Assembly (NCBI GenBank): GCA_041598875.1
Contig: JBFHXP010000002.1
Span: 13,716-77,715 of the forward strand
Reading direction: 5' to 3'
DNA: 64,000 nt
From: Desulfobulbales bacterium
GTDB lineage: Bacteria; Desulfobacterota; Desulfobulbia; Desulfobulbales; BM004
The position numbers and the translations under genes are program-made. The notes beneath the pieces were generated by a model, which had not been told where the DNA came from, made no database searches, and saw nothing but the letters and a program-made list of their open reading frames with translations. Shown here one piece after another: positions 45,253 to 61,496 of this stretch (the stretch's first letter is position 1; every line of letters begins with the position of its first letter).

Positions 45253-47331
45253 TCAGGACAAGAGCTTCTCGCCCCCCGGCGATGAGATAAACACCTTGAG
45301 GGCGCCAACAATCGCCGGATCATACCTGGTGCTGTCTTTTGCCAGGATCTCGATGGCCTCCCTGGGAGCCAGGGCGGAGCGGTAGGAGCGCGGCCGGCTC
45401 ATGGCGCAGAAACTGTTGGCCACGGCAAGGACCTTTGCCGTCACCCGAATCTGATCGCCCTTGAGACCTTGGGGATAACCGCTGCCGTCACTGTTTTCAT
45501 TCATCTGGCAGATGGTTTCCGAGACTGGAAGTTCGAACTCGATGTCCCGGAGGATATCCTCGGTATACTGCACGTGTTTCTGCATTTCCAGCTTCTCGGC
45601 ATCGGTCAGCTGGCCCGGTTTTGACAGGATCGCCTGGTCGACAAAGACCTTGCCGACCTGGGAAAGATAGGCTGCCAGTTCCACCGTGGCCTGCTCCTGC
45701 CCGTCAAGGCCAAGCTCCTTGGCCACGGCCTTTGAGACAACGCTCATCATTCTGGAATGGCCGGCGAGATAGGGATCCTTCATCTCTATGGTCTTGACAA
45801 AGGCGTTGATTGTCTGCCTGATGGTGCGCTCATTTTTCTCCTGGGCCTCCACCAGATGGGTAATATCGGTAAAGACCGAAACAATACCGGTGATCTCGCC
45901 GGCAGAATCGACAAAGGGGATCTTGGTGATCATCAGGTAATGGAGTTTGGAAAGAAGATAGATCTTTTCGCTGACCGTGACCGGCTCCTTCTTCTGCCGG
46001 ACCTGTTCATCGCTTACCTGAAGCCTTTTCGCGGTGTCATAGCCGAAAACGGCGCGGTCATCCGAGCCGATGATACTCTCCATCTCGCTGTCTACCGCCC
46101 GGGCAAAGGCCGGATTGACATACTGGTAATTGCCGGCATGATCCTTAAAGCCGATGTAGTCGGTAATAGTCGAATTGATGCTGTCCAGGAACTGGCGCTG
46201 GTTTTCAATCTGACCGGCAAGCTCCTTGAATGTCACGGCAATCTTTTTGTTCTCCACACCGATCAACCGCCACCAGGCAGCACCCAGAAGAAGAACCAGG
46301 GCCACCAGGCCAAGAACCGCGATGGCCACAAAGCTCCGCCGGTATTGCCTGAGCGGCCCGTTTGCGCTCTCATAGTCGGTTTCCTGGACAACCCACCAGT
46401 CAAGCTCCGGGACCTTCTGGCCCAGGGAATAGACCATGGTATCGCCCTGCACCGACCGGCGGACCCCGTAGGCCATCCGCCCCTGGTCATTGAGCTCAAT
46501 CGCCTCTATCTCCAGGAGGCCGGATGGGGCCCAGGGGACAATCTCATGAAAGACCCCGTCATCAACCTGAACCAACCGGGCGCGCTCTCCCTCCTGAAAA
46601 AGCGGGGAGACCGCGAGAAGCTCGTCCATTTTCTGGGCAACGATCTTTGACAGCATGAGTACGGCCACCGGATCCGAGGGATTGTCGGTGGCGCCATGCG
46701 GCGGCAGGATCGGCAGATAGATATCGAGCACCATCCCCTTGCTGGTCGACCGCAGGGGCGCGAAACGGATCTCGCGGGAGCTGAACACCGATTGGGCCAG
46801 ATCTTTCTGCCGGGCAGAAAGGGCGATGGTGGAGCTGTCGGTGGCAATATAAGACTGGCCGTTGCGATTGATGACCCGGCCATCGAGAAAACCGGAGTAC
46901 TGGACAAACTCGCTGAGCAGGTTGGTCATCATCGGCAGCTGCTCGGCAAGGCCATCGCCCACCCCTTCCGCCATTCGCTGCGGGTACAGATGCTGGTTAA
47001 CGATGATCGAGACGTCTTCCTCGTGGAGATCGATTTCCGCGGCATAGAGGCGGAATATCTCGGACTGGATAATCCGGTCGCCCTGGGCGGCAAGACCGGC
47101 GAGCCAGGTGGAAATGACCTCCGCGCGGCTATTGGCCAGCAACTCAACCCGTTTTTCCGTGGCCTTTTCCAGTTCGCGGGTCCGGTCGGCTATGTTCAGC
47201 CTGACCAGGAAAAATGCCGCGGCAGACAGGATGATGAGTAAAGGTATGCCCACCTGAAAGACTCTGGCCTTAAGGCCGGCAGGTGACTCAATTTCGTGGC
47301 CCAGGGCTGCTTTTATGATCTGCTTGTCCAT
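45253..47331 (-). CDS. Transmembrane Cache-like/PAS protein with a degenerate HD-GYP domain
   Basis: ORF 45253-47382. ATG 47331 (MDKQ) has a GAGGGG RBS and lies 23 nt after the BTLCP stop. Two TM segments flank a periplasmic region of about 285 aa ending LDWWVVQETDYE (Cache-like), followed by a PAS-like segment. The C-terminal domain reads GHSRMM...AAYLSQVGK...QKHVQY...QMNENSDGSGYPQGL...VANSFCAM. Confidence 0.8.
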   Translation of the reverse strand: MDKQIIKAALGHEIESPAGLKARVFQVGIPLLIILSAAAFFLVRLNIADRTRELEKATEKRVELLANSRAEVISTWLAGLAAQGDRIIQSEIFRLYAAEIDLHEEDVSIIVNQHLYPQRMAEGVGDGLAEQLPMMTNLLSEFVQYSGFLDGRVINRNGQSYIATDSSTIALSARQKDLAQSVFSSREIRFAPLRSTSKGMVLDIYLPILPPHGATDNPSDPVAVLMLSKIVAQKMDELLAVSPLFQEGERARLVQVDDGVFHEIVPWAPSGLLEIEAIELNDQGRMAYGVRRSVQGDTMVYSLGQKVPELDWWVVQETDYESANGPLRQYRRSFVAIAVLGLVALVLLLGAAWWRLIGVENKKIAVTFKELAGQIENQRQFLDSINSTITDYIGFKDHAGNYQYVNPAFARAVDSEMESIIGSDDRAVFGYDTAKRLQVSDEQVRQKKEPVTVSEKIYLLSKLHYLMITKIPFVDSAGEITGIVSVFTDITHLVEAQEKNERTIRQTINAFVKTIEMKDPYLAGHSRMMSVVSKAVAKELGLDGQEQATVELAAYLSQVGKVFVDQAILSKPGQLTDAEKLEMQKHVQYTEDILRDIEFELPVSETICQMNENSDGSGYPQGLKGDQIRVTAKVLAVANSFCAMSRPRSYRSALAPREAIEILAKDSTRYDPAIVGALKVFISSPGGEKLLS

Positions 47332-47354
47332 TTTCCCCTCGCTCTGCTCTGTCG

Positions 47355-48107
47355 TTATTTCTTCAATGGAATATGTGCCCAACGGCTCAACTCATCGAAT
47401 GAATACTGTGCAACATAATGTTTGTATCTGGTGTGCTCAAAGACGCCATCAGTCAAATTATCAAGGATATAGATAGTCTCATCGAGGTACACCGCCAGCA
47501 CCGCATGGGCAATATTCCTGATGGTGTCCCGGACAATCACCACCCGCAGCTGGCCGGGGGCAAACCCCAGTTCCCTAAAGACAAAATATTTGGTGATGCT
47601 GTAATCCTCGCAATCCCCCGAGAGTTTGAGAAACTCCTGGGGGGTCGCCCAGTAATCACCAACCCCGTAGACATCCATATCAAGCCGGTAGGGCCATTTA
47701 TTCACATAGCGGCTGACGAATTTCAACTGCTCGAACCCTTTCAGGGAACGCGCCTGGGCGATCAACTCCTGCCAGCTGGCCGCGCCGGGAGGACACCCCC
47801 CAGAGGCCGATCCGCAGCTGTTCAGGGCCCGCACCTGCTCCTTGACGCTGCCGAGTATCCGGAGCCATTGGGTCAGAACCTTGTGCGATCCCTTGAATTC
47901 AATGGTATCAAGCAGCAGGATCCGTTTCTCCCCCGCGCCTGCATCCTGTTCACTGCCCTGACCCGGTCCGGGCATGGCAAGACCCGCCAGCAGCAATGAT
48001 AATAAAACCACCCTGACGATCACCAACCGACTCCAGCGGCTGCCATGCAAGAGAGAGTGAGCAATATGAGGCATAGAAGAAAAAGCCCTGGAATCGTTTA
48101 AGAACAT
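47355..48107 (-). CDS. Bacterial transglutaminase-like cysteine protease (BTLCP, LapG family), periplasmic
   Basis: 250 aa. Signal peptide, then GDCEDYSITKYFVFRELGF (Cys), HAVLAVY (His) and ILDN (Asp), which is the LapG-type triad context. Confidence 0.8.
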   Translation of the reverse strand: MFLNDSRAFSSMPHIAHSLLHGSRWSRLVIVRVVLLSLLLAGLAMPGPGQGSEQDAGAGEKRILLLDTIEFKGSHKVLTQWLRILGSVKEQVRALNSCGSASGGCPPGAASWQELIAQARSLKGFEQLKFVSRYVNKWPYRLDMDVYGVGDYWATPQEFLKLSGDCEDYSITKYFVFRELGFAPGQLRVVIVRDTIRNIAHAVLAVYLDETIYILDNLTDGVFEHTRYKHYVAQYSFDELSRWAHIPLKK

Positions 48108-48188: not shown

Positions 48189-49508
48189 TCATCGTTCCCT
48201 GAGGGCATTCTGCCTGGCCTTGATGATCGGTTTCAGCAGGTACTCGAGAACCGTTTTTTTCCCGGTCAGGATATCGACGCTTGCGGTCATCCCCGGAATG
48301 ATGGGCAGTTTTTCCCCCCGGTAATTGATCGCATTGGTTGTGGTTCTCAGCTTGACCATGAAAAATTTTTCCCGCCGGTCATCCTCAATAGTATCGGCGC
48401 TGATCTGCTCGACAAACCCTTCCAGGCCGCCATATATGCCATAATCATAGGCAGTGATTTTGACCATGGATTTCTGTCCCGGGTGGAGAAAAGCAATATC
48501 CGCCGGCCGGATTTTCGCCTCGATGAGCAGGGTTTCATCCAGGGGAATGATTTCCAGAATCGACTCCCCGGGCTTGACCACCCCGCCGAGGGTATTGATG
48601 TAGATCTTCTTGACCGTGCCGCGGACCGGCGACCGGACATCCGTTCTGGTTGCCCGGTCCTGCCCGGCAACATTCGCCTCGAGAAGTGATTTCAACTCGC
48701 CCCGCTTCTTGTTCAGTTCAGCCGCTGCCGTTGATTTAAATTCGGCACGGCGCTGCGCCTGGCGGCGCTTGATCTCCTGGGCCGCCTCAACGGCGCGGGG
48801 GATGTTCAATTCCAGGCTTTGTATCTCACCGGTAATGGAATTGATCTCGCGCTCAAGGGAGAGATACTCAACCTTGGGAAATAATTTTTTCTCCACAAGA
48901 GGGGTGGCGATGGCCACCTGCTCCCTGGCCAGTTCGAGGTTCTTTCCCAACTGATCCTTCTTGCTCTCCATCCCGCCTATCTCCTGCATCTTCTGCTGGT
49001 ACTGGGAGTTGAGGATGTTCAGCTCAAGCTGCAGTTGCTCCTTGCGGGCCGCATAGATCTGTTTCTGATCCATGACGATCTGCGGGTCATGTCGGGCAAT
49101 TTCGGCCGGCAGGGAGAGTTCCTGCTCGTTCACCTCCGCCTCCAGCCTGGCAATGGACGCCCGGTGCTCCATTGACTGGGAAAAAGAATCCCGATAATGG
49201 CTGGCAGCCTGTTCATTGCTCAGGCGGACAAGGATATCACCCGGCTGGACAATCTGGTTTTCCCGAACCATGACCTCCTCGAGAATACCCCCCTCAAGAT
49301 GCTGGATGACCTGAACATGACGGGAGGGGATAACCTGTCCGCTGCCCCGGGTCACCTCGTCAAGAACAGCGTAATGGGCCCAGGCGACAAAACAGATAAC
49401 GAGCAGGCAGACCGCAAACGAGAGGAGATAGGCCGCGGAGTTCCCGTGGCGCTGCAGGGCGCTGCTCACCTCGTCCATAAATTCCGCATCCGTTGTTTTT
49501 CTGCTCAC
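48189..49508 (-). CDS. HlyD-family type I secretion membrane-fusion protein
   Basis: 439 aa. N-terminal TM, long coiled coils, and a C-terminal ...PGMTASVDILTGKKTVLEYLLKP typical of HlyD/LapC. Confidence 0.88.
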   Translation of the reverse strand: MSRKTTDAEFMDEVSSALQRHGNSAAYLLSFAVCLLVICFVAWAHYAVLDEVTRGSGQVIPSRHVQVIQHLEGGILEEVMVRENQIVQPGDILVRLSNEQAASHYRDSFSQSMEHRASIARLEAEVNEQELSLPAEIARHDPQIVMDQKQIYAARKEQLQLELNILNSQYQQKMQEIGGMESKKDQLGKNLELAREQVAIATPLVEKKLFPKVEYLSLEREINSITGEIQSLELNIPRAVEAAQEIKRRQAQRRAEFKSTAAAELNKKRGELKSLLEANVAGQDRATRTDVRSPVRGTVKKIYINTLGGVVKPGESILEIIPLDETLLIEAKIRPADIAFLHPGQKSMVKITAYDYGIYGGLEGFVEQISADTIEDDRREKFFMVKLRTTTNAINYRGEKLPIIPGMTASVDILTGKKTVLEYLLKPIIKARQNALRER

Positions 49509-49579: not shown

Positions 49580-51853
49580 TTACGCCTGGCCCGGAACATG
49601 CTGCTGCCTCTGTTCTTTCAGGAACTCCAAGACCTTATCCCTGGGACCATCCACCAGAACCCGGCCCTTTTCCATCACAATCAACCGATCGACAAGCGTG
49701 AGCATTGACTGGCGGTGCGAGACAACAACCAGGGTCTTCTGTTTGAGAACAGAGGCCAGGCGGGACTTGAAAAGCGCCTCCATCAGTGTATCCATGCTGC
49801 TGGTCGGCTCGTCGAGAAGCACAATATCAGGATCACGGACCAGGGCCCGGGCAACGGCAACCGCCTGACGCTGGCCGCCGGAAAGGTTCATGCCCCGCTC
49901 GCCGACCTGAAGCCCGAACCCGGCCGGGTGATTTCGTACAAAATCAGTGACCCCGGCAACGGTTGCTGCCCAGAGAATGGCCGCATCATCAGCAAAAGGC
50001 GCGCCAAAGGCGATATTCTCCCTGATGCTGCCATAAAAAAGATATTTGTCCTGCGATGCATAGCCGATTTTCTGCCGCAACTCGGCCACATCGAGCTGCC
50101 TGATATCCAGACCGCCGACCATGACGCTGCCCGAGGCAGGGGTGTAGAGCCCGAGAATCAGGCGGCCCAGGGTACTTTTGCCGGATCCCATCGGCCCGAT
50201 GATCCCAACTTTTTCTCCGGCGCTGATGTGCAGGGTAACGGTATCCAGGGCCTTGAGTTCGGAACTGGGATAGGAAAAAGAGACCCGGTCAAATGTGATG
50301 CTGCTGCCGATTTTACCATGATGCACATACTCCCTGCCATCGGGCCTCTCGCTGGGGATCTCCATGACCATGTTGAGCGATTTGAGGGCCATGCGCGACT
50401 GCTGCAGCCGGGTCAGCATTGCCGCCACCGCACCCAGGGGGGCCATTGCCCGGCCGACCAGGATGGTGCAGGCGATGAGCCCGCCCATGGTCAGAACCCC
50501 TTCCTTGATCCGAAATACTCCCCAGACGATGACCGCCACACTGACCAGCTGGGTGGCAAACTGTGAAAAGGTGATGGAAAAGGTTGCCAGTGATTTTGCC
50601 TGGGCCGAAGAGCGGGCATTCATGCCCACCACGCTCTCCCACCGCCCCTGGACTCTGCTCTCGGCAGTGCTGGTCTTGATCGTTTCAAGCCCGTTGATCG
50701 CCTCGACAAGAATGGCATTTTTCTGGGCCGACTCCCTGAAACCCTTTTCTATCGCCCGCTGAAATGGAAACTGAATCAGCACGCCAACCAGAATGACAAC
50801 CGGCACGGCAATGGCAGGGGCATAGGCAACCGGGCCGCCGATAAAGGAGACCAGGAGAATAAAAAGCACAAGAAAAGGGATATCCACCAGGGAAAGAAGG
50901 GTGGTGGAACTGAAGAACTCACGCAGTGATTCGAATTCGCGCAGGTTGTTGACCATGGAGCCGGTGGAATCGGGTTTATGGTCCATCTTGATTGCCATAA
51001 CGTGCTGCAGGAGACGACTGGCAAGGATAACATCGGATTTTTTCCCTGCCATATCAACGAAATACCCGCGCAGCAGACGAAGGAGAAAATCAAAGACATA
51101 GGCAATGCACACCCCCACCGCCAGGACCCAGAGGGTCTCAAGGGCATTGTTGGGCACCACCCGGTCATAGACATTCATCACAAAAAGCGGCCCGGCAACA
51201 CCCAGTATATTGATAACAATACTCGCGAGAAGGACATGCTTATAGAGAGGATAAAAGTGGCCGATCGTGCCCCAGAACCATCTCTTGCCCTTGAGCAGTT
51301 GCAGTTTACTGGCCCGGTCATCCAGACGGCCCCTGGCCTGGACAAAAAGCGCCTTGCCGGTATAGAGCGGCTGCAGGGTTTCCAGGGGAACGCTCTGACT
51401 GGTGTCCGGGGTCTCGGCAAAGATCACATCGGCCATGTCCGAGTGTATCCCGCCCAGAACGCAGCTGTTGCCATCCTTTAACAGAAGGATGCACGGCAGA
51501 GTCAGAGGGTTGATCCGGGCTATGGCCGGCCGCTTGAGAATTCGGGCATTCATCCCAGCCTGTTCCGCGGCCCGGACACAGAGATGGGGTGAAAAATCCT
51601 GACCGCTGAGGGGCAGCGAGGCAAGCAGCGCGCTGATTGAAACACTCCTGCCCTTGAGCCTGAGGAGTGTCTCGAGACAGGTCAGCAGGGGAGGCCGCGG
51701 GTCGGCGCTCTGACCGGACGACGGGGCAGCAGAGAGATCGACCTGGCCGGCCCGCTGGGTTGCATTTCCCTGAGAGTCAACAGGGCGAGTCCCGTGGTCA
51801 CCCTTTTCCGGGCCCATGGGTTCTGTTTCCTGAACTGAAGAGGAGGTCTGCAT
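49580..51853 (-). CDS. Type I secretion ABC permease/ATPase with an N-terminal C39-like domain (LapB/LssB-like)
   Basis: 757 aa. C39-like region (LLTCLETLLRLKG...), six TM segments, Walker A GPMGSGKST, signature LSGGQRQ and Walker B IVLLDEPTS. Confidence 0.9.
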   Translation of the reverse strand: MQTSSSVQETEPMGPEKGDHGTRPVDSQGNATQRAGQVDLSAAPSSGQSADPRPPLLTCLETLLRLKGRSVSISALLASLPLSGQDFSPHLCVRAAEQAGMNARILKRPAIARINPLTLPCILLLKDGNSCVLGGIHSDMADVIFAETPDTSQSVPLETLQPLYTGKALFVQARGRLDDRASKLQLLKGKRWFWGTIGHFYPLYKHVLLASIVINILGVAGPLFVMNVYDRVVPNNALETLWVLAVGVCIAYVFDFLLRLLRGYFVDMAGKKSDVILASRLLQHVMAIKMDHKPDSTGSMVNNLREFESLREFFSSTTLLSLVDIPFLVLFILLVSFIGGPVAYAPAIAVPVVILVGVLIQFPFQRAIEKGFRESAQKNAILVEAINGLETIKTSTAESRVQGRWESVVGMNARSSAQAKSLATFSITFSQFATQLVSVAVIVWGVFRIKEGVLTMGGLIACTILVGRAMAPLGAVAAMLTRLQQSRMALKSLNMVMEIPSERPDGREYVHHGKIGSSITFDRVSFSYPSSELKALDTVTLHISAGEKVGIIGPMGSGKSTLGRLILGLYTPASGSVMVGGLDIRQLDVAELRQKIGYASQDKYLFYGSIRENIAFGAPFADDAAILWAATVAGVTDFVRNHPAGFGLQVGERGMNLSGGQRQAVAVARALVRDPDIVLLDEPTSSMDTLMEALFKSRLASVLKQKTLVVVSHRQSMLTLVDRLIVMEKGRVLVDGPRDKVLEFLKEQRQQHVPGQA

Positions 51854-52315
51854 GGTTCAGTTATTCATCATAGGTGAGCATTGTTATTCTGACCTGACAC
51901 CTGAAGTGATAAAACCATACCCAGCAGAGACCTGTTCTGGCAACCGATATCACGATAACCCCTAACCCTTCAGAGACCCCTGGATGGATGTTTCCGGAAA
52001 AAAGGAAAACCCGACCCCTGCCACCCCAAAAGGGGTTTCCCTGCACCACGCCGCGGAACAAGTCTTGACAGCTTTCCTGATTACCACGAAACAACAAGAA
52101 CTTAAGGCACCATGGCGCCTCCGCGAACAGGGGGGGGACCCGCCAGGTTTACCCCAGGGCATGTTCACCTCTATCAGCCCACTTCCGACAATCCGGACAC
52201 TTTCCGGAAATCCACTCGAAAAAAACGAAAAAAACAGGTTCCGAAGTGACCGAAAAACCCGGCTCAAAAACTGATAACACTGATATTGCTCGAAAAAAAC
52301 AAACCCGGAAAAAGT

Positions 52316-52755: not shown

Positions 52756-53502
52756 ATGAAAACACGAGCACTCTTCCTGTCAGTTGGGCTGTCGATCCTT
52801 CTCCTCTCTTCCCCGGCATTTGGCTCGGCTTATACGTATAATGTATCGAGTGTGCGCGATACTGTCACCGGGGGAATGATGGATGGGCTGGAGGTGACTG
52901 CATACTATGAAAACGGCACATCTTCGAACGCATTCTGGGGATACCTGGGCGCACAACCAGGCGCGACCTCAGGTCGGGCTTATGTCTCTGACGGGTATCA
53001 ATTGTTTCAGGGTGGCAACACCTATCTTTCCAACTGGACGCTCACCAATAGCAGTACGAGCAAACTTATCTCCCTGACCATCCAGGGCATGGGCATGGAT
53101 TCAAATAATGAAAGACCACGGGCAAACGTTGTATTTGATTCATTTTATGGGACAGGAACCGGTGCTGACAAACGAACCCCCGGCTCCGAGTTGGGCAGGT
53201 TCATTGCAGATCCCCTTGGAACCAACCCGGTACCCGTTACCTTCCTCTTCTCGGATCCGGTCGCCCATAAGGGAACAGTCTATGGTGACCTCTATGCCAC
53301 CCTCACCCTGACATTTGGCGGGGGTGGTCTTGCGAAATATGATCGTACAACTGCACCAAATAATAAAATTGTTTTCACGGCTGACACGGACAGCATAACC
53401 CCGGTACCAGTGCCCGCAACCCTCTGGCTCCTGGGCTGTGGCATCCTCTCCCTGATCGGTTCAAGGAGAAAGACCGGCAGCAGCCCGCGCCTGAACGCAT
53501 AA
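52756..53502 (+). CDS. Secreted protein with a PEP-CTERM-like C-terminal sorting signal (VPVP variant)
   Basis: 248 aa. Signal peptide (…SSPAFG/S). The C-terminus has TPVPVPATLWLLGCGILSLIGSRRK, i.e. a Pro-rich motif, a TM segment and a basic cluster. Confidence 0.7.
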   Translation: MKTRALFLSVGLSILLLSSPAFGSAYTYNVSSVRDTVTGGMMDGLEVTAYYENGTSSNAFWGYLGAQPGATSGRAYVSDGYQLFQGGNTYLSNWTLTNSSTSKLISLTIQGMGMDSNNERPRANVVFDSFYGTGTGADKRTPGSELGRFIADPLGTNPVPVTFLFSDPVAHKGTVYGDLYATLTLTFGGGGLAKYDRTTAPNNKIVFTADTDSITPVPVPATLWLLGCGILSLIGSRRKTGSSPRLNA

Positions 53503-53539: not shown

Positions 53540-54769
53540 ATGCCAGAATTAAATGCTCCTGCCCAACCATCGACAGCCACCCGTGATAACCTGGTGCGGG
53601 TCGGCAAACCCCAGGCCGGCCAATCCTCGGCACTGGTCCTCGCCCCTGGCGCAGCCATAGCCCTTGACTTTGACATAACCGAGGCCGAGGCGATCCTGCA
53701 AAACGGCGCGTTGATCTTCCGCTTTGCCGATGACAGCGAGATCCAGCTGCAGAACTTTGAGGCCGTGCTTGCCAGCACCGAACTTATCCTTCAGGACGGC
53801 ACTGAAATAAGCGGCGACCAGGTGATGGGGGTTATCCAACCGGGCGGCGACGAACCTGCTGCCGGGCCTGGCTCGACAAGCGGCGGCGCCGGTGAATATG
53901 ACGACTATCTTGGCAGTATAACAGGCCCGATTGAGCGGTTGGGCACCCTTGACCCGCGGCAATTGACCGACCCCCAGACCGATCTCGAAGGGGGCGCGGG
54001 CTTGGTACCACCTGATCCGCCTGAGACACCCCTTGTTCTGGCCGATGACACGGATCTTCTGTATTATGACCGGATCTTGTCTGAACAAGGAGAATTTTCT
54101 GAAGTAGGCAAAATACTACCGATTCTCAAGATATATAATGCCGGGCCAGGCCCGGACGACACCCTCTATGACAGCCACACCCGGGGCAATGTACTGAGCA
54201 ACGACATCGGAGACGGCCTGCGGGTAACCGGCTTTACCCACAACGGTACGACATACGTTGCGGACGGATCGACCGTGACCCTGAGTTCCGGGGCCAGGTT
54301 TTCCCTTGGAGCGGACGGCTCCTACCGCTACGCCTATGATACCACCGAGACGGTTGATAGCACGCAGAGACCAAATTTTAGCACCCTGTCTTTCCCAGGA
54401 CTCAATGCCGGTCACGCTCCTGGACAGGACAAACATGCCATTGCCCGCATTGAGTTATCCGATCTGACCGATGATGACTGGCTCCAATTTGACTGGAGCG
54501 ATACTGCTGGCAACAAACATAATGCCGTATACCCTGAATTCGCCATCCAAAACAACACAGTAGAACTCTATGACCTTGACGGCTTTGCCAGCCTGGACAT
54601 CACGGTCCTTGCTGGGTCTGTCACTTTCGAATCACTCAAGGTGGAATACACCGATTCGACATTGACCAAAGAGACAATCCAGTACCAAGTGACAGACGCC
54701 TACGGCGCCAGCGGTTCGGCCAACCTTATCCTCGACTTTGCCGCAACCAACCCACCGCCCGTGGCGTAA
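53540..54769 (+). CDS. Candidate small LapA-like T1SS substrate/adhesin with a PAAG di-alanine site
   Basis: ORF 53528-54769. ATG 53540 has a GGAG RBS. No Sec signal peptide. The N-terminal LIFRFADDSEIQLQNFEAV region is followed by GGDEPAAGPGSTSGGAG. The C-terminus has a cadherin/VCBS-like YQVTDAYGASGSANLILDF. Confidence 0.5.
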   Translation: MPELNAPAQPSTATRDNLVRVGKPQAGQSSALVLAPGAAIALDFDITEAEAILQNGALIFRFADDSEIQLQNFEAVLASTELILQDGTEISGDQVMGVIQPGGDEPAAGPGSTSGGAGEYDDYLGSITGPIERLGTLDPRQLTDPQTDLEGGAGLVPPDPPETPLVLADDTDLLYYDRILSEQGEFSEVGKILPILKIYNAGPGPDDTLYDSHTRGNVLSNDIGDGLRVTGFTHNGTTYVADGSTVTLSSGARFSLGADGSYRYAYDTTETVDSTQRPNFSTLSFPGLNAGHAPGQDKHAIARIELSDLTDDDWLQFDWSDTAGNKHNAVYPEFAIQNNTVELYDLDGFASLDITVLAGSVTFESLKVEYTDSTLTKETIQYQVTDAYGASGSANLILDFAATNPPPVA

Positions 54770-54790
54770 CATCCGGTTTTATCTAAAAAA

Positions 54791-54822
54791 CCACATCCCA
54801 AAAAAACAGGGGTGTGGTTTTT
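54791..54822 (+). terminator. Rho-independent terminator after the 409-aa gene
   Basis: ccacatccc / ggggtgtgg stem (one G-U pair), 9-nt A-rich loop, then TTTTT. Confidence 0.7.
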
Positions 54823-54949: not shown

Positions 54950-56311
54950 ATGCATAAAAAAATCGCTCTATTCACCGCAATTGCCGTGGCCCTCATACAC
55001 CTGCCGCAGGTTTCATCTGCCGGAGAAACCGTGACAGTGCAACAAAGTGTGATAGATACCCTCACAACCAGCCCGCGCCTGGAAATGATGAAACATAATC
55101 GGACCGCGATCAACCATGACATGGCCAAGGCCCGGGGCGGCTATTTCCCGCAACTTGACGTTGTGGCCGGCTATGGTTTCGGCGCCCATAAAAGCCTGAC
55201 CACCCGAAATGCAGCGGCCACCGCCCCCTATGATGACGACTGGATGGCCCGCAGTGACGCCGCCCTGATTCTGCAGCAGCTTGTTTTTGACGGAAACGAG
55301 GTGAAAAGCCAGGTTGATATTGACCGATTCAAGATAGACTCGATCAATTACCGGGTATTTGACAATGCCGAGGCCCTGGCCCTTGATGCCGCCCTTGCCG
55401 CCCTTGAGGTCTATCGCCAGCAGGAACTGCTCAAGGTTGCCGAGGCAAATGTGGCGGCCCACGAAAAAATTCTCGAATCCCTCAAGGTTATAGAACAGGC
55501 CGGCGCCGGCAGCAGCGCCGATGTCATCCAGACCCGGGCCCGCCTTTCACGGACCATGGCCACCCGGATAACGGTGATGAGCGACCTGGAAACCGCCCTG
55601 TCCAATTTTGAGCGGTTGGTCGGGTATCGGCCGGATACCGTGCAGTTTCCCGAAAATGCCGATGCGGTCCTGCCGGCTTCCCAGGATGAAATTATCAATA
55701 TGGTGATAGCCTCCAACCCGAAATTCCTGGCAGCGGCCTCTGATATCAAGGTCGCCGGGGCGGTGGTCAATCTGGAGAAATCTAAATATTCCCCCAAAAT
55801 ATACCTGGAGGGGGTTCTGAAATATGAAGATGGTACCGATGGGGTGGAAAGCTGGATCAGAGACGAGGGAGTCATGGTCCGGATGCGCTGGAACCTGTTC
55901 AACGGCATGGCGGACGACGCCGCGGTCAAGGCGGCCAGGGCACGCAAACTGCAGGAGGAATTAAACCGGGAAGATATCATCAGAACCATTGCCAACGACA
56001 CCAGGGCAACCTGGTCCAGATACACTGCAGCGGTGCAAACGGAAAAGGCCTTTGCAGAAAACGTCAGCTTCAACGAAGAGACCCGGACACTGTACAGCGA
56101 CCAGTTCTCCATCGGCCAGCGAAGCCTTCTTGATCTTCTCGATGCTGAAAACGAGGCATTCCAGTCCCGGGGCCTCTACACCTCGGCCAAGGTTGACCGC
56201 GCGGCCACGGCCTATAAGCTTCTCGCCCTGCCCGGAAAACTCATAGATACGTTGGGCATCGATTCAGCTATCTACAAAGATCCCAAATATGAAAAGAGCA
56301 GGAAAAACTGA
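54950..56311 (+). CDS. TolC-family type I secretion outer-membrane channel (LapE-like)
   Basis: 453 aa. Signal peptide, then two tandem OEP-type repeats (…RGGYFPQLDVVAGYG…, …KYSPKIYLEG…). Confidence 0.85.
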   Translation: MHKKIALFTAIAVALIHLPQVSSAGETVTVQQSVIDTLTTSPRLEMMKHNRTAINHDMAKARGGYFPQLDVVAGYGFGAHKSLTTRNAAATAPYDDDWMARSDAALILQQLVFDGNEVKSQVDIDRFKIDSINYRVFDNAEALALDAALAALEVYRQQELLKVAEANVAAHEKILESLKVIEQAGAGSSADVIQTRARLSRTMATRITVMSDLETALSNFERLVGYRPDTVQFPENADAVLPASQDEIINMVIASNPKFLAAASDIKVAGAVVNLEKSKYSPKIYLEGVLKYEDGTDGVESWIRDEGVMVRMRWNLFNGMADDAAVKAARARKLQEELNREDIIRTIANDTRATWSRYTAAVQTEKAFAENVSFNEETRTLYSDQFSIGQRSLLDLLDAENEAFQSRGLYTSAKVDRAATAYKLLALPGKLIDTLGIDSAIYKDPKYEKSRKN

Positions 56312-56554: not shown

Positions 56555-57331
56555 TTATCCCCTTTTCTCAGCCGCAAAAAGCGCGCCACCGGTATAGGGC
56601 GATGTCCGGAAAGGCGTTGCCCCGATATGCCGGACCCCGACAAACCCTGCCCGCTCCATCAGCATAAGTTGATCCCCCACGGAGACCGTTCCCCCTACTC
56701 ACTGGGCCCAGGCCTCAAGGCTGCCGACGAGGTGTGGGGGCAGTTCCGTTTCCAGTACAATATCCGCAAACTGCAGCCGTGCCGACGGTTTCAGCACCCG
56801 AAAGATCTCCTGAAATATTTTTTCCTTGTCCGGGACCAGGTTGATCACCCCGTTGGAGATGACCACATCAAAGGTCGAGTCGGCAAAGGGAATCGCGCTG
56901 TCGTTGACATGATGGATACGGGCATTTTCAATCAAGGCCGCGGCAAGATTTTTCCGGGCCCGTGCAACCATCTCCTCGGTCAGGTCAATACCATGGACAA
57001 AGCCATCAGGCCCGGCAAGGCGGGCGGCAACAACCACGTCAAAGCCGGCGCCATTGCCAATATCCAGCACCACGCTTCCCGGAGGGATCGTATTAATTGC
57101 AAAGGGATTGCCCACCCCGCAGAATGATGTCAGCAGCTCCGGCGGCAGCGCATCAAGCAGGGCCTTGTCATAGCCCAGGGCCTCTGCCCCCCGCCTGCCG
57201 GTGGGGTATGTGAACCTGCCGTCGGCAGAGACCGCCACCTCGGCATATTTGGCGCGAATCGCCGCCTGTATCCGGCCGATATCAACGGAAGAGATCGGCC
57301 CGCGACCGGCTTGCATATGAACCACGGGCAA
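56555..57331 (-). CDS. ArsM/UbiE-like SAM-dependent methyltransferase, candidate selenoprotein (in-frame TGA at 56699-56701)
   Basis: The 210-aa ORF has the SAM motif VLDIGNGAGFD, plus FCGVGNP. It ends ...LEAWAQ-TGA. The same frame then continues for 47 sense codons (VGGTVSVGDQLMLMERAGFVGV...) to TAA at 56555. TGA sits at the conserved W..C[IV].G position. Confidence 0.55.
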
Positions 57332-57545: not shown

Positions 57546-58910
57546 TTACACCACGGTATCAAACAGAAAACGCATGGGATTTCGCCAGGTGAGAAGATCG
57601 ATAAGTTCGTTGCGGTCCGGAAGTACCTCCCGCCCGGCCCGGGGCACCTCGCAGGAACCTCTGCCATTTAAGGCGCCAATATCCATGGCTGCAACAAAGC
57701 GCGCGAAATACTGGTCATAGGTGGTAATCAATCCCCCATGTCCTGTGCCGAGAATCATGGGAATATCCGAGCCCCAGAGCAGTTTTTCCTTGAGCGTGCA
57801 GACCGGGTTTTCAATATCGAGCCTGTTGTCAAGCTCCCCGGCCTCATCAAGGGCAAGGAGCCAGCCCAACGCGGCCACCGCCCTGTGATCATTATAGTTG
57901 AACGCCGCCAGATCGGCATAGGTATTTTTGTATGTCTTGAGCAGCCGGATCAGAATGGCGGTCCAGGTGGTTTTTTTCAGCTTTGGCCGCGGAACCATCA
58001 TCGATGTTGCCATGGGAAACGGCGTCTCATCGTACTCCTCCTCCACCTGGTTAAAAAACACGGTCTTTTTCAACTCCTCTTCGCCGCCGAAATGGGCAAA
58101 ATTAATCCTGAAATCATCCGCCCTATCGCCCAGGGCATGCAGGACCGCCCGCCAGTTTGCCGGATGGGTAAAGGCATCTGCCTCCTTTTTTGTGATATCC
58201 TGGGCTGAATAGGAACCAGGCTTGGGCTGGCAATGGGTGGTTACCGGAATATTCCGGTCGCAGAACAGGGTATAGAGGGCCCGGTATTTTCTCGCAATGG
58301 CCGGGGAACCATCAGAGACGCTGTAGGGGTTGAAACCAATGGGCGGGTAGAGCTTGATCCCGATCGGCCTGCCGTTGCCAAGGCCACTGATATCAACCCG
58401 ACCCTGGACAGACCGCAGCACCTCCGCCCCGCACCTCTCTGCAAAGGTGTCAAAATCAGCGGCCAGGGTATCAAGCCGCCATGCCTGGACCTTGCGAAGA
58501 TCAAGACCGACAAAGGGGAGAAAAAGGGCGTCCCCGGCAAACTGAGTATCCCCTATCTCCGAGATCAACCTCTTTGCCTGATAATAGACATGGTCCTTCT
58601 GCGCCCCCTCAATTTCATCAAAGTCCATGATCAGGGGAGTAATGACCGGCCGGCGTCCTGTCAGCGGTGAATGGACGGCCAGCGCCTCGCTGATCTGTTG
58701 CGCCAGGATAACGGCATTATCCCGGGGCCTGCGGTCAAAAAAATTGATATAGCTCTCAAAATTCTTCAACTCCTTTTTATGCAGACCACAGAGAAATGCC
58801 AGGGCAAGAAGTGAGTTGGGCAGAAATCGCACGTTGCCCAGGGTGGGATAGAGGGGAATGTCCTCAATATTGAACAGATGACAATGGGAATCAATAAAAC
58901 AGGCGCTCAT
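57546..58910 (-). CDS. Amidohydrolase-superfamily (TIM-barrel metal hydrolase) protein
   Basis: ORF 57546-59024. ATG 58910 is the likely start (GGAGGGGGG RBS). The N-terminal FIDSHCHLF is an HxH metal motif. Function unknown. Confidence 0.55.
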   Translation of the reverse strand: MSACFIDSHCHLFNIEDIPLYPTLGNVRFLPNSLLALAFLCGLHKKELKNFESYINFFDRRPRDNAVILAQQISEALAVHSPLTGRRPVITPLIMDFDEIEGAQKDHVYYQAKRLISEIGDTQFAGDALFLPFVGLDLRKVQAWRLDTLAADFDTFAERCGAEVLRSVQGRVDISGLGNGRPIGIKLYPPIGFNPYSVSDGSPAIARKYRALYTLFCDRNIPVTTHCQPKPGSYSAQDITKKEADAFTHPANWRAVLHALGDRADDFRINFAHFGGEEELKKTVFFNQVEEEYDETPFPMATSMMVPRPKLKKTTWTAILIRLLKTYKNTYADLAAFNYNDHRAVAALGWLLALDEAGELDNRLDIENPVCTLKEKLLWGSDIPMILGTGHGGLITTYDQYFARFVAAMDIGALNGRGSCEVPRAGREVLPDRNELIDLLTWRNPMRFLFDTVV

Positions 58911-59243
58911 TTCCCCCCTCCTTATTCTCTGTTGCACCTTTCCGCCAACCGCTTTGCGGCCATTTGCGGCCAGTAAGGATCCGGAAATCCCCCCTCGCGG
59001 TATGGTTTCCCCGTCAGCCCACACAAACCTATATCCACGGAACTCTTTTCATTTAGCAGGATTAAAGCCTCTTTTCAAGGGATAAACCCGGACGGAGCAA
59101 GGATATCCCCTTATCGCCAAGGCCCCTTAAATCATCCTCCACGGCACGAAAAATCCTGGCTATTTACCAAGGCCAGGGGATAGTTTATAGAGGGTGTGGA
59201 TGGCGCCCCTTGACCATAATAATCTTCAGCAAAAAAACGAACA

Positions 59244-61496
59244 ATGTCTCCGGAATCAAAACAGAACGGAACGCAGCGCAACCGGTTTGGAACATTTACC
59301 GGTGTGTTCACCCCTTCGATCCTGACCATCCTCGGCGTCATTCTCTTTATGCGCGCCAACTTCGTGGTCGGCCAGGCCGGCTTTCTCCACGCCATCTCCA
59401 TCCTCCTGATCGCCAAGGCGATCACCTTTGCCACCGCCCTCTCCATTTCCGCGGTAAGCACCAATATGCAGGTCCGGGGCGGCGGATTCTATTACATGAT
59501 ATCCCGGGTACTTGGCGCTGATTTCGGCGGCACCATCGGGGTGACCCTTTTTCTTGCCCAGGCCCTTTCGGTTCCCTTTTACATCCTGGGTTTCACCGAG
59601 GCCCTTGTCCTTTCCTTTCCCGCCATGGCCAATTACTTCCAGGCCGTCAGCCTGAGCATGGCCCTTGTTCTTTTCATGGTCACCTATTTCGGCGCCGGCT
59701 GGGCCCTGCGGGTCCAGTTTGTCATCATGGCCTTTCTCGGCCTGGCCATTCTTGCGTTTCTCGGTGGCGCCGCCACCCTCTTCTCTACCACCCGGTTCAT
59801 GGAAAACTTCCTCCCGGCCTATACCTCCCACGTCTCGGAGAATACCCTGGCGCCCTACACCTTCTGGGCGATGTTTGCCCTCTACTTCCCGGCAGTAACC
59901 GGGATCGGCACCGGGGTGAACATGTCCGGAGACCTCAAGGAACCGGCCCGCAGCATCCCCAGGGGAACCCTGGCCGCGGTGGGGGTGGGCTTTCTCATCT
60001 ATGCCGCGCAGATCGTGCTTGCAGCCGGGGCGTACAACCGCGATGAGATGATCGCCCGGCCATACCTCCTGCTCCAGGATAACGCCCTTTTCGGACTTGC
60101 CTTTCTGATCCCCCTGGGCATGGTTGCGGCAAGCCTTTCCAGCGCCCTGGGCAGTTATCTCGGCGCCCCGCGGGTGCTTCAGGCCATTTCCCGCGACCGT
60201 ATCCTCCCCCTGCTGGCCATCTTTGCCATGGGGTCATCAAAGGGTGACGAGCCCAGGCGCGGCCTGATCCTTACCATGGTCATCACCCTCGTTGTTCTTT
60301 TATGGGCTGGAAACGGTGAGGGGGGGGCGGCCTTTAACGCGGTTGCCGTCCTGATCACCATGTTCTTCCTTTACAGTTACGGCATGATCAACCTCGCCGC
60401 CTTTATCGAGGGGATAAGCAACAACCCGTCATTTCGCCCCAGGTTTCGTTATTTTCACTGGACCACCGCCCTGTTCGGGGCCGCGGGCTCCGGCGCGGTC
60501 GCCTTTCTCATCAATCCCCTGGCAGCCTTTGCCGCCCTGTGCATCGCCTCGGGATTGCTCTGGTATATCCGCACCAAGGAGCTGAAAATCGCCTTCGGTA
60601 ATGTCAGACGCGGCTTCCTCTTCCACTCAACCAGAAAAAAACTCCTCCAGTTACAGCAACTTGAGCCAGACCCAAAGAACTGGCGACCGACAATCCTGGT
60701 TTTTTCCGGAAATCCGGACAACCGGGAACTGCTGGTCTCCTACGGGGTCTGGCTGGAGGCGGGCCGCGGCATCGTCTACCTGGCCAACAACCTGGTCGGC
60801 GAGTTCTCCGAGCTTGCCGCCCGCCGCCGGGCCGCCATCCGCCAGTTGAAAAAATACTGCGAGGAAAACAGTGTCCAGGCCTTTCCCATAATCTCCATTG
60901 CCAGGGATCGGGAAGACGGGATCATGATGATCCTGCAGATGGCGGCAAGCGGCCTGGTACGCCCCAACCTTGTCCTGCTCGGCTGGTCTGAGGAGGTAGA
61001 CAGCCTGGCCAGCTACTGCCGGATTTTGCGGGCTGCCTCAATGCTCGAGATGAGCCTTGTTCTCTTAAAATCAACCACCCTGCCGGCATCAAATATCACC
61101 AACAGAATCGATGTCTGGTGGCGCGGCCGCAAGAACGGCAGCCTGATGATGCTGCTCGCCTATCTCCTTACCAAGAACTGGGAGTGGCAGAAGTCATCAA
61201 TTCGCCTGCTCCGGGTCATCGAGGATGAGGCCGGGGAAGAACCGGCGAAAAAGGGGCTGGAAATACTCCTTGAAACCGCCCGGATCAGTGCTCAAAGCAA
61301 AATAATCATCAGCACCAAACCCTTTATGGAAATACTCAAAGAGCACTCTGCCGATGCCTCCTGCCTGCTCCTGGGCTTTGAAATTCCTGATGAGGAGGAA
61401 GAACTCCACTGGAGCGCAAACCTTGAAATGCTTGCCGACTCCATGCCCACCACCCTGTTTGTCACCTCCAGCGGCACCGAAGATATGCTTGCCTGA
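59244..61496 (+). CDS. APC-superfamily transporter, cation:chloride cotransporter (SLC12)-like, with a large cytoplasmic C-terminal domain
   Basis: 750 aa. Contains FGTFTGVFTPSILTILGVILFMR. About 12 TM segments, then about 280 soluble residues. Confidence 0.7.
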   Translation: MSPESKQNGTQRNRFGTFTGVFTPSILTILGVILFMRANFVVGQAGFLHAISILLIAKAITFATALSISAVSTNMQVRGGGFYYMISRVLGADFGGTIGVTLFLAQALSVPFYILGFTEALVLSFPAMANYFQAVSLSMALVLFMVTYFGAGWALRVQFVIMAFLGLAILAFLGGAATLFSTTRFMENFLPAYTSHVSENTLAPYTFWAMFALYFPAVTGIGTGVNMSGDLKEPARSIPRGTLAAVGVGFLIYAAQIVLAAGAYNRDEMIARPYLLLQDNALFGLAFLIPLGMVAASLSSALGSYLGAPRVLQAISRDRILPLLAIFAMGSSKGDEPRRGLILTMVITLVVLLWAGNGEGGAAFNAVAVLITMFFLYSYGMINLAAFIEGISNNPSFRPRFRYFHWTTALFGAAGSGAVAFLINPLAAFAALCIASGLLWYIRTKELKIAFGNVRRGFLFHSTRKKLLQLQQLEPDPKNWRPTILVFSGNPDNRELLVSYGVWLEAGRGIVYLANNLVGEFSELAARRRAAIRQLKKYCEENSVQAFPIISIARDREDGIMMILQMAASGLVRPNLVLLGWSEEVDSLASYCRILRAASMLEMSLVLLKSTTLPASNITNRIDVWWRGRKNGSLMMLLAYLLTKNWEWQKSSIRLLRVIEDEAGEEPAKKGLEILLETARISAQSKIIISTKPFMEILKEHSADASCLLLGFEIPDEEEELHWSANLEMLADSMPTTLFVTSSGTEDMLA

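Follow-up and report, generated by a model that had tools for sequence, protein, structure and literature searches.

Giant biofilm adhesins are anchored in the type I secretion pore and are cut by a periplasmic protease when the level of c-di-GMP falls (PMC10990149; PMC13090378). In Desulfovibrio vulgaris Hildenborough, such control is exerted by the DvhD/DvhG system, published in 2024 (PMC10990149) and 2026 (PMC13090378), in which the protease DvhG has been shown experimentally to cut DvhA and DVU1545 at a di-alanine (PMC10990149; PMC13090378). Ca2+-dependent cleavage at the di-alanine by the cognate BTLCP, blocked by an AA-to-RR exchange, has been described only for DvhA, DVU1545 and LapA (PMC10990149; PMC13090378). 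The sites in the substrates follow the consensus [T/A/P]AAG (PMC13090378; bioRxiv 10.1101/198937), and the role of a “targeting” helix that precedes the cut site has also been described (PMC13090378). [quoted passage not shown] 2026).

The 64-kb stretch of DNA analysed here, in the following called the window, contains a gene for a 409-aa protein next to genes of this kind. Based on sequence comparisons and structure models, we consider it quite probable that this protein, here called the cargo, is a small cargo dedicated to a two-step type I secretion system (T1SS) of the DvhDG (Lap-like) type.

The cargo gene, its locus and its homologs

The cargo gene is located at positions 53540-54769 on the plus strand, and its translation reproduces the sequence quoted in an earlier note on this DNA, which had taken ATG 53540 as the start. 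A ribosome-binding site (GGAG) lies 6 nt 5' of this ATG, Met1 is invariant across the alignment of the small family described below, and a terminator-like hairpin with a U-run is located 3' of the stop codon (54786-54822, plus strand; RNA fold of -25.8 kcal/mol, z = -4.35). The protein is acidic, with 62 Asp and Glu residues versus 19 Lys and Arg residues, and it contains no Cys. Its first 28 residues are polar and lack an N-terminal hydrophobic core, which is why we agree with the earlier note that there is no Sec signal. The absence of RTX repeats was likewise confirmed, as a strict pattern (GG.G.D.[hydrophobic]) and a looser one (G[GNSAD].G.[DN]) both failed to match anywhere in the cargo, and a Pfam search gave no match to PF00353 (HemolysinCabind, GGxGxDxUx nonapeptides). 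The C-terminal tail AATNPPPVA (residues 401-409; 54740-54766, plus strand) is short and not acidic, consistent with the earlier remark that no obvious acidic T1SS signal could be seen. No recognisable T1SS signal could be demonstrated in the cargo, and the RTX beta-roll that serves Ca2+-dependent extracellular folding is also absent. The signal is presumed to be formed jointly by the last Ig-like strands and this tail. The C-termini of T1SS substrates are enriched in [FLI][VAI] (PMC8861453), and the tail ends in [LV]A in six of the 11 small-family members.

Genes for secretion and its control surround the cargo gene. On the plus strand, a TolC-family outer-membrane channel, equivalent to LapE/DvhE, is encoded at 54950-56311 (OEP, 4e-49; TIGR01844, 223 bits, just under the curated cut-off of 225.15). 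The minus strand encodes an LssB/LapB-type ABC transporter of the T1SS (49580-51853; TIGR03375, 947.6 bits against a cut-off of 693.1 bits), a HlyD-family T1SS membrane-fusion protein (48189-49508; TIGR01843, 402.6 bits), a BTLCP cysteine protease whose N-terminus carries a hydrophobic anchor or signal (47355-48107; PF06035, 1.3e-19) and a c-di-GMP receptor (45253-47382, with a likely start at ATG 47331; Pfam PAS_4 and HD_5). The protease, fusion protein, transporter and channel genes are all placed within 9 kb. The earlier note had described the first three as adjacent to the cargo gene; they are indeed present, together with the TolC gene, but the protease gene is located about 5.4 kb away on the opposite strand and is thus not directly adjacent.

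The protease is an ortholog of DvhG, to which its core is 59% identical over 131 aa, with the motifs GDCEDY, HAVLAVY and ILDN aligned and conserved. The alignment to DvhG shows that it contains both the Cys-His-Asp triad and the D-C-E calcium site that serve as a criterion for DvhDG systems. The receptor is an ortholog of DvhD (42% identity over 675 aa, E 3e-164) and is organised as a transmembrane segment, a periplasmic domain of about 290 aa, a second transmembrane segment, a PAS domain and a degenerate HD-GYP domain. The HD motif is replaced by LSQVGK while DGSGYP is kept, which is the same degenerate HD-GYP as in DvhD, and the alignment to DvhD suggests that the periplasmic domain has a dCache fold. 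Judged by these genes, the Lap system encoded here is of the DvhDG type and not of the LapD type. The reading in the earlier note is refined here in that the regulator is a DvhD-type dCache-PAS-HD-GYP protein rather than LapD with its HAMP-GGDEF-EAL domains.

Relatives of the cargo were found by an exhaustive HMMER search, whereas a word-indexed search with the single cargo protein recovered only itself and a single-protein scan of genome contigs with the cargo recovered nothing. The DNA patterns for finding loci were derived from an alignment of 11 sequences, the alignment of 55 sequences being too diverse. The search for homologs called for in the earlier note thus yielded a small-cargo family of 11 members (374-449 aa), all from metagenomes or MAGs, with the same end-to-end architecture and operon position; two of the loci are labelled uncultured Desulfobacteraceae. 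The same seven-gene cassette is present in five loci (the window, L002, L003, L012 and L013), in which the cargo proteins are 35-42% identical, and the T1SS, BTLCP and receptor genes are strictly syntenic with the cargo gene in these five independent loci. The small protein is the sole candidate cargo in each of the five full cassettes and the one gene product there with the N-terminal module; this uniqueness was tested for the window, where no other gene within the 64 kb contains the module. Two TTTCCGGAAA palindromes located between the divergent genes were considered as an operator and rejected, as they are absent from the five other loci. No Rfam families were found in the 44-64 kb part of the window.

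The N-terminal module and the predicted cleavage site

The N-terminal part of the cargo contains a beta-strand retention domain (residues 18-91; 53591-53812, plus strand), a predicted “targeting” helix before the cut site (residues 92-99; 53813-53836, plus strand), the predicted BTLCP (DvhG/LapG-type) site P106-A107-A108-G109 (53855-53866, plus strand), with a predicted scissile bond between A107 and A108, and a Gly/Pro/Asp-rich tether (residues 110-164; 53867-54031, plus strand). The retention domain is of the DvhA type and BapA-prefix-like, and was modelled by AlphaFold with a pLDDT of about 90 or higher. The helix was assigned by DSSP in both AlphaFold models and is directly followed by a stretch of low confidence (pLDDT 50-65 over residues ~100-165), which includes the tether, predicted to be disordered at the same pLDDT of 50-65. 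Based on the AlphaFold models and the HMM homology to DvhA, the order of retention domain, helix, site and unstructured segment in the DvhG/LapG substrates is present also in the cargo. The tether is proposed to thread the TolC-like channel.

The family HMM of the module matches residues 11-146 of DvhA at 115 bits, and in the profile alignment the scissile A106-A107 of DvhA falls on A107-A108 of the cargo. Within the helix, V95 and I99 of the cargo align with F95 and F99 of DvhA. In the retention domain, Gln85 of the cargo aligns with I85 of DvhA, which is important for the docking of DvhG. A direct phmmer match of the cargo (P0055, E 6.5e-6) contains the N-terminus of DVU1545 exactly. The tether motif SGGxGEYxDxxG...IxRLGTLxPR is invariant in the small family and common to DvhA and DVU1545. 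A pairwise BLASTP comparison of the cargo and DvhA was weak (E 0.003) and covered only the RLGTLDP stretch; the profile comparison was decisive instead. The N-terminus had previously been described as LapA-like, but it is DvhA-like (BapA-prefix-like). The N-terminus of LapA aligned only at TAAGP, and the label was dropped as a statement of sequence homology. Pfam and NCBIfam searches with the N-terminal 141 aa of the cargo gave no matches at E-values up to 10. The BapA prefix-like model NF033677 is matched by 17 of the 55 members of the N-terminal family (best E 1.4e-7) but not by the cargo itself at E-values up to 10, which indicates that the relationship between the two is remote. As to the structure prediction and comparison suggested earlier, a beta domain and a helix were predicted. 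The fold search with the N-terminal model found no solved retention module and only beta-solenoid and RTX-roll matches, the best of them to generic beta-solenoids (TM ~0.55, E 1e-3 or weaker). A sequence search of the PDB with the cargo gave nothing meaningful.

The di-alanine that the earlier note placed at about residues 107-108 is encoded where expected, and its conservation, proposed there as a check, is high. Among 94 homologous N-termini, A107 is present in 87, A108 in 87 and G109 in 86, and position 106 is P, T or A in 88; one homolog (P0100) contains PASG in place of PAAG. The site in the cargo fits the consensus [T/A/P]AAG and falls inside the 80-150 residue range of the broader criterion [T/A/P]AA[G/V] applied by Smith et al. 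(bioRxiv 10.1101/198937). A composition-based estimate is that one [TAP]AAG would occur by chance in the 80-150 window of about 1 per 100 proteins, but the conservation across the 94 N-termini rules out such a chance origin of the PAAG.

It might still be asked whether the cargo is inherited baggage, either the remains of a large adhesin after truncation or a protein that is exported in a single step, if at all, so that the PAAG site is never used. The lack of RTX repeats and of a demonstrable secretion signal could be read in this way, as could the fact that the family has no database name. However, the 11 homologs have retained the same length (374-449 aa), architecture and operon position, and E105-P106-A107, G109 and some 20 residues of the tether do not vary within the small family at an overall identity of roughly 40%. 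The cargo gene is also flanked by a ribosome-binding site and a terminator hairpin, and we regard such a remnant as highly improbable.

The putative exported region and the upstream partner gene

The C-terminal region that would be exported (residues 165-400; 54032-54739, plus strand) is a beta-sandwich region with two Big_9/cadherin-like Ig-type segments. AlphaFold predicts 16 strands at a pLDDT of about 90 for residues 210-400, preceded by a disordered loop (residues ~176-209) that is specific to the target cargo. The cadherin/VCBS-like strand pattern reported in the earlier note is real but weak, as residues 345-396 match Big_9 (PF17963) at 17.9-18.1 bits (E 0.005), below the gathering threshold of 23.6 bits. 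It is supported indirectly in that residues 343-409 match the 98-aa repeats of one protein (P0010) fifteen times, and repeats of multi-Ig proteins are matched by residues 215-285 as well as by residues 343-409. We also considered an Ig domain split by the insertion of a ligand-binding domain. This was rejected in favour of the more conservative reading of two tandem Ig-like segments because each of these two stretches matches about 70 aa of ordinary Ig repeats of about 100 aa. With the full model, the fold search retrieved just weak matches of the jelly-roll, CBM and MAM kinds with poor rmsd. Across homologs that are 35-42% identical, the ectodomain contains invariant residues.

These residues are relevant for the suggestion that the cargo is a decoy or plug, which occupies the T1SS channel or the protease and thereby tunes the display of large adhesins whose genes lie elsewhere, while itself lacking any surface function. 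All parts that engage the channel and the protease are kept while the ectodomain is very small, and in D. vulgaris two adhesins, of which one is encoded outside the operon, are served by a single protease (PMC13090378). However, a confidently folded ectodomain (pLDDT ~90) with invariant residues would be needless in a pure plug, no second gene with the module is present in the 64-kb window, and the small protein is the sole candidate in the five full cassettes. A role purely as a decoy thus seems very improbable.

The conservation of [P/T]AAG, the profile homology to DvhA and DVU1545, the AlphaFold architecture and the synteny of the five loci all agree with the proposal in the earlier note of a small, RTX-free T1SS cargo that can be cleaved by the BTLCP. 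Speaking against it are the lack of a recognisable T1SS signal and of an RTX beta-roll, the absence of Pfam and NCBIfam matches to the N-terminus and of a solved retention module among the fold matches, Gln85 in place of the I85 of DvhA, and the PASG of P0100. We infer that the cargo is secreted, retained at the surface and cleaved, with adhesion as the output. In the proposed mechanism, the unfolded, acidic and Cys-free cargo would be exported with its C-terminus first via the LssB-type ABC transporter, the HlyD adaptor and the TolC-like channel, directed by a non-RTX signal within the last Ig-like strands and the tail. The retention domain (residues 18-91) would fold before entering the channel, so that export stalls with the tether of about 55 residues (110-164) in the channel and the Ig-like ectodomain of about 235 residues on the surface. 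At high c-di-GMP, the DvhD-like receptor with its degenerate HD-GYP would restrain the BTLCP. When c-di-GMP drops, the BTLCP would dock on both the retention domain and the helix of residues 92-99 and cut between A107 and A108, thereby releasing the ectodomain.

The gene directly upstream of the cargo gene in all nine of nine loci encodes a 248-aa protein (52756-53502, plus strand) with a Sec signal, a beta-rich body and a PEP-CTERM/VPxP-type C-terminal sorting tail. This conserved PEP-CTERM-like partner was absent from the account in the earlier note. With 7 proteins in 5.8 billion, the close family of the partner equals that of the cargo in rarity. No exosortase gene is present in the 64-kb window, and a distant relative of the partner was found outside any T1SS cassette.

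The partner bears on the function of the cargo. Export and cleavage may proceed as proposed, but the cargo may not be an adhesin; it may instead be a factor released under the control of c-di-GMP, or the cell-bound half of a link with the PEP-CTERM-like partner. Its role would then be to bind that partner or the matrix and not abiotic surfaces. The invariable upstream position of the partner gene and the matching rarity of the two families are consistent with such a role, as is an ectodomain of only two Ig-like segments without a recognisable ligand-binding module. On the other hand, the interaction with the partner is conjectural and the adjacency may reflect co-regulation only, the window lacks an exosortase and the distant relative resides outside T1SS cassettes. 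We consider this reading possible, but tentative. A more specific version, which we regard as doubtful, is that the cargo and the partner constitute a two-part adhesion device that can be released in response to c-di-GMP. The ectodomain of the pore-tethered cargo would bind the exosortase-sorted partner, located either on the matrix or on adjacent cells, and the cut at A107-A108 would unhook the cell. If so, the device would connect T1SS/Lap-type control to the exosortase/PEP-CTERM pathway of floc formation, a connection undescribed so far. The invariable presence of the partner hints at an unexplored link between Lap-type control and matrix proteins that depend on exosortase in sulfate-reducer-related bacteria.

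Comparison with described systems

To our knowledge, every T1SS substrate validated for a LapG/DvhG-type protease is a giant RTX adhesin, with lengths that range from 1,000 to more than 5,000 aa. Some relatives of the cargo N-terminus are similar to BapA/LapF-type T1SS adhesins in that they match the NF033677 prefix-like domain. BapA-type proteins are giant, and we know of none that is a BTLCP substrate. The control system described here is already known from Desulfovibrio, while so small a natural cargo, always partnered by a second surface-protein gene, is undescribed; the cargo adds to a known class of substrates a new variant that is small and free of RTX. The screen for LapG substrates by Smith et al. 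required proteins of more than 1000 aa with at least one RTX motif, and small substrates were thus invisible by construction (bioRxiv 10.1101/198937). The cargo has the cleavage motif and a nearby BTLCP and LapB-type T1SS, but is shorter than 1000 aa and has no RTX motif.

If a 409-aa protein is indeed a substrate, retention and release would require neither RTX repeats nor a long repeat stalk, non-RTX C-termini with a terminal Ig-like domain could serve LapB-type transporters, and the system would also handle cargo other than megadalton adhesins. In practical terms, the cargo would be a tractable natural substrate, small enough to express, mutate and reconstitute, which could open the way to structures of a T1SS whose substrate is arrested within the TolC channel and of the recognition of the substrate by the BTLCP.

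The cargo resembles DvhA (DVU1012) and DVU1545 in its homologous N-terminal retention domain, helix and L/E-P-A-A-G-P site, and in the motif SGGxG[ED]Y..D.G.L...[VI][DE]RLG that follows the site. It differs in size, as DvhA contains 3,038 aa and the cargo 409 aa with two Ig-like segments, and in that DvhA and DVU1545 contain more than 12 beta-rich repeats and a C-terminal RTX/serralysin-like region, whereas the cargo lacks RTX; a vWF-A domain is present in DvhA only, not in DVU1545 (PMC13090378). The protease, the receptor and the LssB-type T1SS are orthologous to those of the DvhDG system, but the target operon contains an additional PEP-CTERM-like gene, and the source organisms of the target type are Desulfobacteraceae-like MAGs. 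No names beginning with “Desulfobacter” were found in the supplementary files of the DvhDG paper.

The giant RTX adhesins controlled by LapG/LapD include LapA and MapA in Pseudomonas fluorescens, FrhA and CraA in Vibrio cholerae, BrtA and RtxA. The cargo shares with the Lap adhesins the logic of an N-terminal retention module, a [T/A/P]AAG site at about residues 100-110, a LapB/LssB-type T1SS and a release, predicted for the cargo, by a BTLCP under the control of c-di-GMP (PMC10990149; PMC13090378; bioRxiv 10.1101/198937). However, beyond the motif, the LapA-type N-terminus has no detectable sequence similarity to the cargo. An engineered LapA of about 510 aa (N272; residues 1-272 plus the C-terminal 235) is displayed on the surface and released by LapG, which suggests that a small size is no obstacle to either step (bioRxiv 10.1101/358705). 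N272 consists of nothing but a retention module, a tether and a secretion domain in about 500 aa, and is similar to the cargo in design and size. It is, however, artificial and keeps the RTX-containing C-terminal domain of LapA, whereas the cargo is natural, conserved and RTX-free.

The proposed cargo gene and its conserved cassette

The gene at positions 53540-54769 on the plus strand encodes a 409-aa protein, here called the cargo, whose translation is the same sequence as quoted in the earlier note. The start at ATG 53540 proposed there is borne out by a GGAG sequence 6 nt upstream and by the family alignment, in which Met1 is in line with the starts of all homologs. Residues 1-28 are polar and the protein therefore lacks a Sec signal, as the note had stated, and the di-alanine that it placed at about residues 107-108 is found in P106-A107-A108-G109, encoded by nt 53855-53866. 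No RTX nonapeptide was identified in the cargo, not even with a loose regular expression, in agreement with the first reading. The protein contains 62 Asp and Glu residues, 19 Lys and Arg residues, and no cysteine. A strong hairpin and U-run is located downstream of the stop codon (-25.8 kcal/mol, z = -4.35).

Upstream of the cargo gene, the minus strand encodes an LssB/LapB-type T1SS ABC transporter (49580-51853; TIGR03375, 947.6 bits vs a cut-off of 693), an HlyD adaptor (MFP; 48189-49508), a BTLCP protease (47355-48107), and a receptor (45253-47382), which is a membrane protein of 692-709 aa with a periplasmic domain of ~290 aa as well as PAS and HD-GYP domains. The receptor gene can start at either of two codons, TTG 47382, in which case it overlaps the BTLCP gene by 28 nt, or ATG 47331, and the alignment to DvhD, the c-di-GMP receptor of Desulfovibrio vulgaris, begins downstream of both. 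The receptor and BTLCP genes lie close together and are probably transcribed as one unit. A divergent intergenic region of 902 bp is followed on the plus strand by a partner gene (52756-53502), whose 248-aa product has a Sec signal and ends in a PEP-CTERM-like tail, the cargo gene, and a gene for a TolC-family channel (54950-56311). The intergenic region contains two exact copies of the palindrome TTTCCGGAAA, 210 bp apart (51991-52000 and 52201-52210); a third is located at 60703, with no further ones in the 64 kb, and in five related loci the corresponding regions lack the palindrome. Just past the TolC gene are ORFs of 166 aa (56627-57127, plus strand) and 492 aa (57546-59024, minus strand), which lie outside the cassette conserved in other loci and have no convincing match in Pfam or NCBIfam, the best being a weak Amidohydro_2 match (E 6e-4) to the 492-aa ORF. 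The remaining genes in the window are housekeeping genes (nuo, pnt, feoB, mreBCD-PBP2-rodA, and polA).

The window shares its seven-gene cassette (receptor, BTLCP, MFP, and ABC on one strand, then partner, cargo, and TolC on the opposite strand) with four further loci, namely L002 (GCA_963986185.1), L003 (L005 is this same contig; GCA_964644375.1, “uncultured Desulfobacteraceae bacterium”), and L012 and L013 (JGI metagenome contigs of 325 and 337 kb), where the cargo homologs show 35-42% identity to the target. Shorter contigs contain partner-cargo or cargo-TolC pairs wherever flanking sequence is present. The partner gene is located directly upstream of the cargo gene in all nine loci with upstream sequence (the window; L002:9256-9948; L003:9247-9954; L004:2707-3324; L009:942-1619; L010:256-1017; L011:178-870; L012:9297-9941; L013:9121-9951). 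Its products (205-276 aa) combine a Sec signal and a beta-rich body with a VPxP-TM-KRR tail similar to PEP-CTERM/VPLPA-CTERM; they can be aligned end to end at 33-38% identity and have the tail VP[IVL]P-TM-[KR]R[KR] in common. A profile search of 5.8 billion proteins recovered only the close family of about seven proteins. A distant relative is found outside any T1SS context. The window contains no exosortase gene.

The best-supported reading is that the protein would be a dedicated small cargo of the T1SS system in the window. The invariable partner gene is the one observation that points instead to a released factor, or to the partner-binding half of a two-protein link, with the same export and cleavage serving a different purpose, which we consider possible but rather unlikely.

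Homologs and conservation of the predicted cleavage site

A word-indexed search with the cargo gave only the self-match. An exhaustive HMMER search identified 95 representatives, four of which are full-length homologs (399-449 aa, 35-40% identity), while about 85, ranging from 125 to 2196 aa, have only cargo residues ~10-160 in common, here called the N-terminal module. The module is present in no other ORF of the 64-kb window. Following a profile search, the full-length family comprised 11 proteins of 374-449 aa, none of which is named in any source. That the cargo is a remnant or an unused module is most improbable, given the eleven length-conserved homologs and the fixed operon position.

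Among 94 N-termini, position 106 is P in 58, T in 23, and A in 7; the alanines 107 and 108 are each conserved in 87 and G109 in 86, and only Gly87, Pro24, and Phe62 are equally conserved. The site is an exact fit to the published LapG/DvhG consensus, [T/A/P]AAG (PMC13090378; bioRxiv 10.1101/198937), and just past it a motif, SGGxGEYxDDxGxLxxGxDRLGxLDP, is conserved in the family. Where the scissile site is predicted, the homolog P0100 (L010:1071-2339) reads EPASG, not EPAAG, and this natural variant may be cut less efficiently or resist cleavage.

The NCBIfam model NF033677 (BapA prefix-like domain) matches 17 of 55 relatives. RTX repeats are missing from four proteins with the module, P0067 (419 aa), P0014 (734 aa), P0012 (1343 aa), and P0028 (1527 aa), whose C-termini consist of a Big_9-like strand and a short tail; this hints that BTLCP-type cargo without RTX repeats forms a wider, recurrent class with a common C-terminal signal. 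P0071 and P0074 have the same module, strand, and short tail without RTX; the set spans 419-1527 aa, with tails such as ...ETMLTSNIEAG and ...MLQQNGFDPV.

Predicted architecture and export

The AlphaFold2 model of the cargo was based on an alignment of 55 sequences (mean pLDDT 78), and a model of the N-terminus only agrees with it. The model contains strands at residues 18-91 (pLDDT > 90), a helix at residues 92-99, a low-confidence segment at residues 100-165, and a short confident strand at residues 169-172, PLVLADD, the typical opening of Big_9-type domains. Residues 176-209 form a disordered loop, a target-specific insertion found in none of the homologs; it includes a stretch of ~20 residues, SEVGKILPILKIYNAGPGPDD (residues ~186-209, positions 54095-54166), absent from all ten homologs and predicted to be disordered. 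Residues 210-400 contain sixteen strands (pLDDT about 90). Ordinary Ig repeats (~100 aa) of multi-repeat proteins match the cargo at residues 215-285 and again at residues 343-409, over ~70 aa in each case, and the ectodomain is therefore read as two putative Ig-like beta-sandwich segments. The cadherin/VCBS-like C-terminus described in the earlier note is reflected in a Big_9 match, although this is below the threshold (17.9 bits vs 23.6). That the cargo acts as a decoy or plug is highly unlikely, since the ectodomain is conserved and confidently folded.

As a dedicated cargo, the protein would be exported C-terminus first by the T1SS until folding of the N-terminal domain stalls export. The tether would then lie within the TolC-like pore, and the Ig-like ectodomain would be outside. 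Loss of c-di-GMP from the receptor would then lead the BTLCP to cut between A107 and A108, releasing the cargo. The tether of ~55 residues, ~190 Å when extended, would be longer than the TolC channel of ~140 Å. The secretion signal is the weak point of this mechanism, as the RTX roll is absent and the AATNPPPVA tail is short. In six of the 11 family members the tail ends in [LV]A, which may loosely resemble the reported enrichment of [FLI][VAI] in the C-termini of T1SS substrates (PMC8861453). Small size is no obstacle, because an engineered LapA of ~510 aa, made of the first 272 and the last 235 residues, is displayed and then set free by LapG (bioRxiv 10.1101/358705).

Comparison with the Dvh system

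The logic of DvhDG regulation and cleavage is already published. What appears to be new is an RTX-free substrate class of 374-449 aa, the invariable presence of a PEP-CTERM-like partner alongside it, and its occurrence in Desulfobacteraceae-like uncultured bacteria. The standard screen requires >1000 aa and RTX repeats (bioRxiv 10.1101/198937), the supplementary files of the 2026 Dvh paper (PMC13090378) do not contain the name Desulfobacteraceae, and the literature searched contained no papers on small LapG/DvhG substrates, an absence that is not proof. To a specialist, the cargo would be plausible rather than shocking, but useful as a minimal natural model.

The N-terminal region had been described as LapA-like, but no relation to a LapA-type N-terminus was detectable, the LapA query being an approximate sequence. 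A Desulfuromonadales MAG (DAOVNV010000018.1; L006:285-11284) has another layout, with BTLCP-MFP-ABC, TolC, a 695-aa Big_9/DUF6923/cadherin/RTX protein, and a module gene truncated at the edge of the contig; the 10 kb of this locus examined contained no DvhD-like receptor.

The Dvh system of Desulfovibrio vulgaris consists of a T1SS, the BTLCP DvhG, and, in place of LapD, the dCache-PAS-HD-GYP c-di-GMP receptor DvhD; it controls the adhesins DvhA (3,038 aa) and DVU1545, which DvhG cuts at a di-alanine past a beta retention domain and a targeting helix, and an AA-to-RR change stops the cleavage (PMC10990149, PMC13090378). Sequences for comparison were taken from Supplementary Data 2 of the Dvh-system paper. 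Residues 11-146 of DvhA match the HMM of the N-terminal family with 115 bits (31 bits for the target alone), and hmmalign places A107/A108 of the target at A106/A107 of DvhA. The docking residues L90, F95, and F99 of DvhA correspond to I90, V95, and I99, whereas I85 is replaced by Q85. The N-terminus of DVU1545 is contained verbatim in P0055, a direct match to the target (E 6.5e-6). The protease in the window shows 59% identity to the catalytic core of DvhG, with GDCEDY, His, and Asp conserved, and the receptor shows 42% identity to DvhD over 675 aa; both receptors have LSQVGK instead of the HD motif and retain DGSGYP. Judged by these similarities, the locus is a DvhDG-type system, and the N-terminus of the cargo is homologous to proven DvhG substrates.
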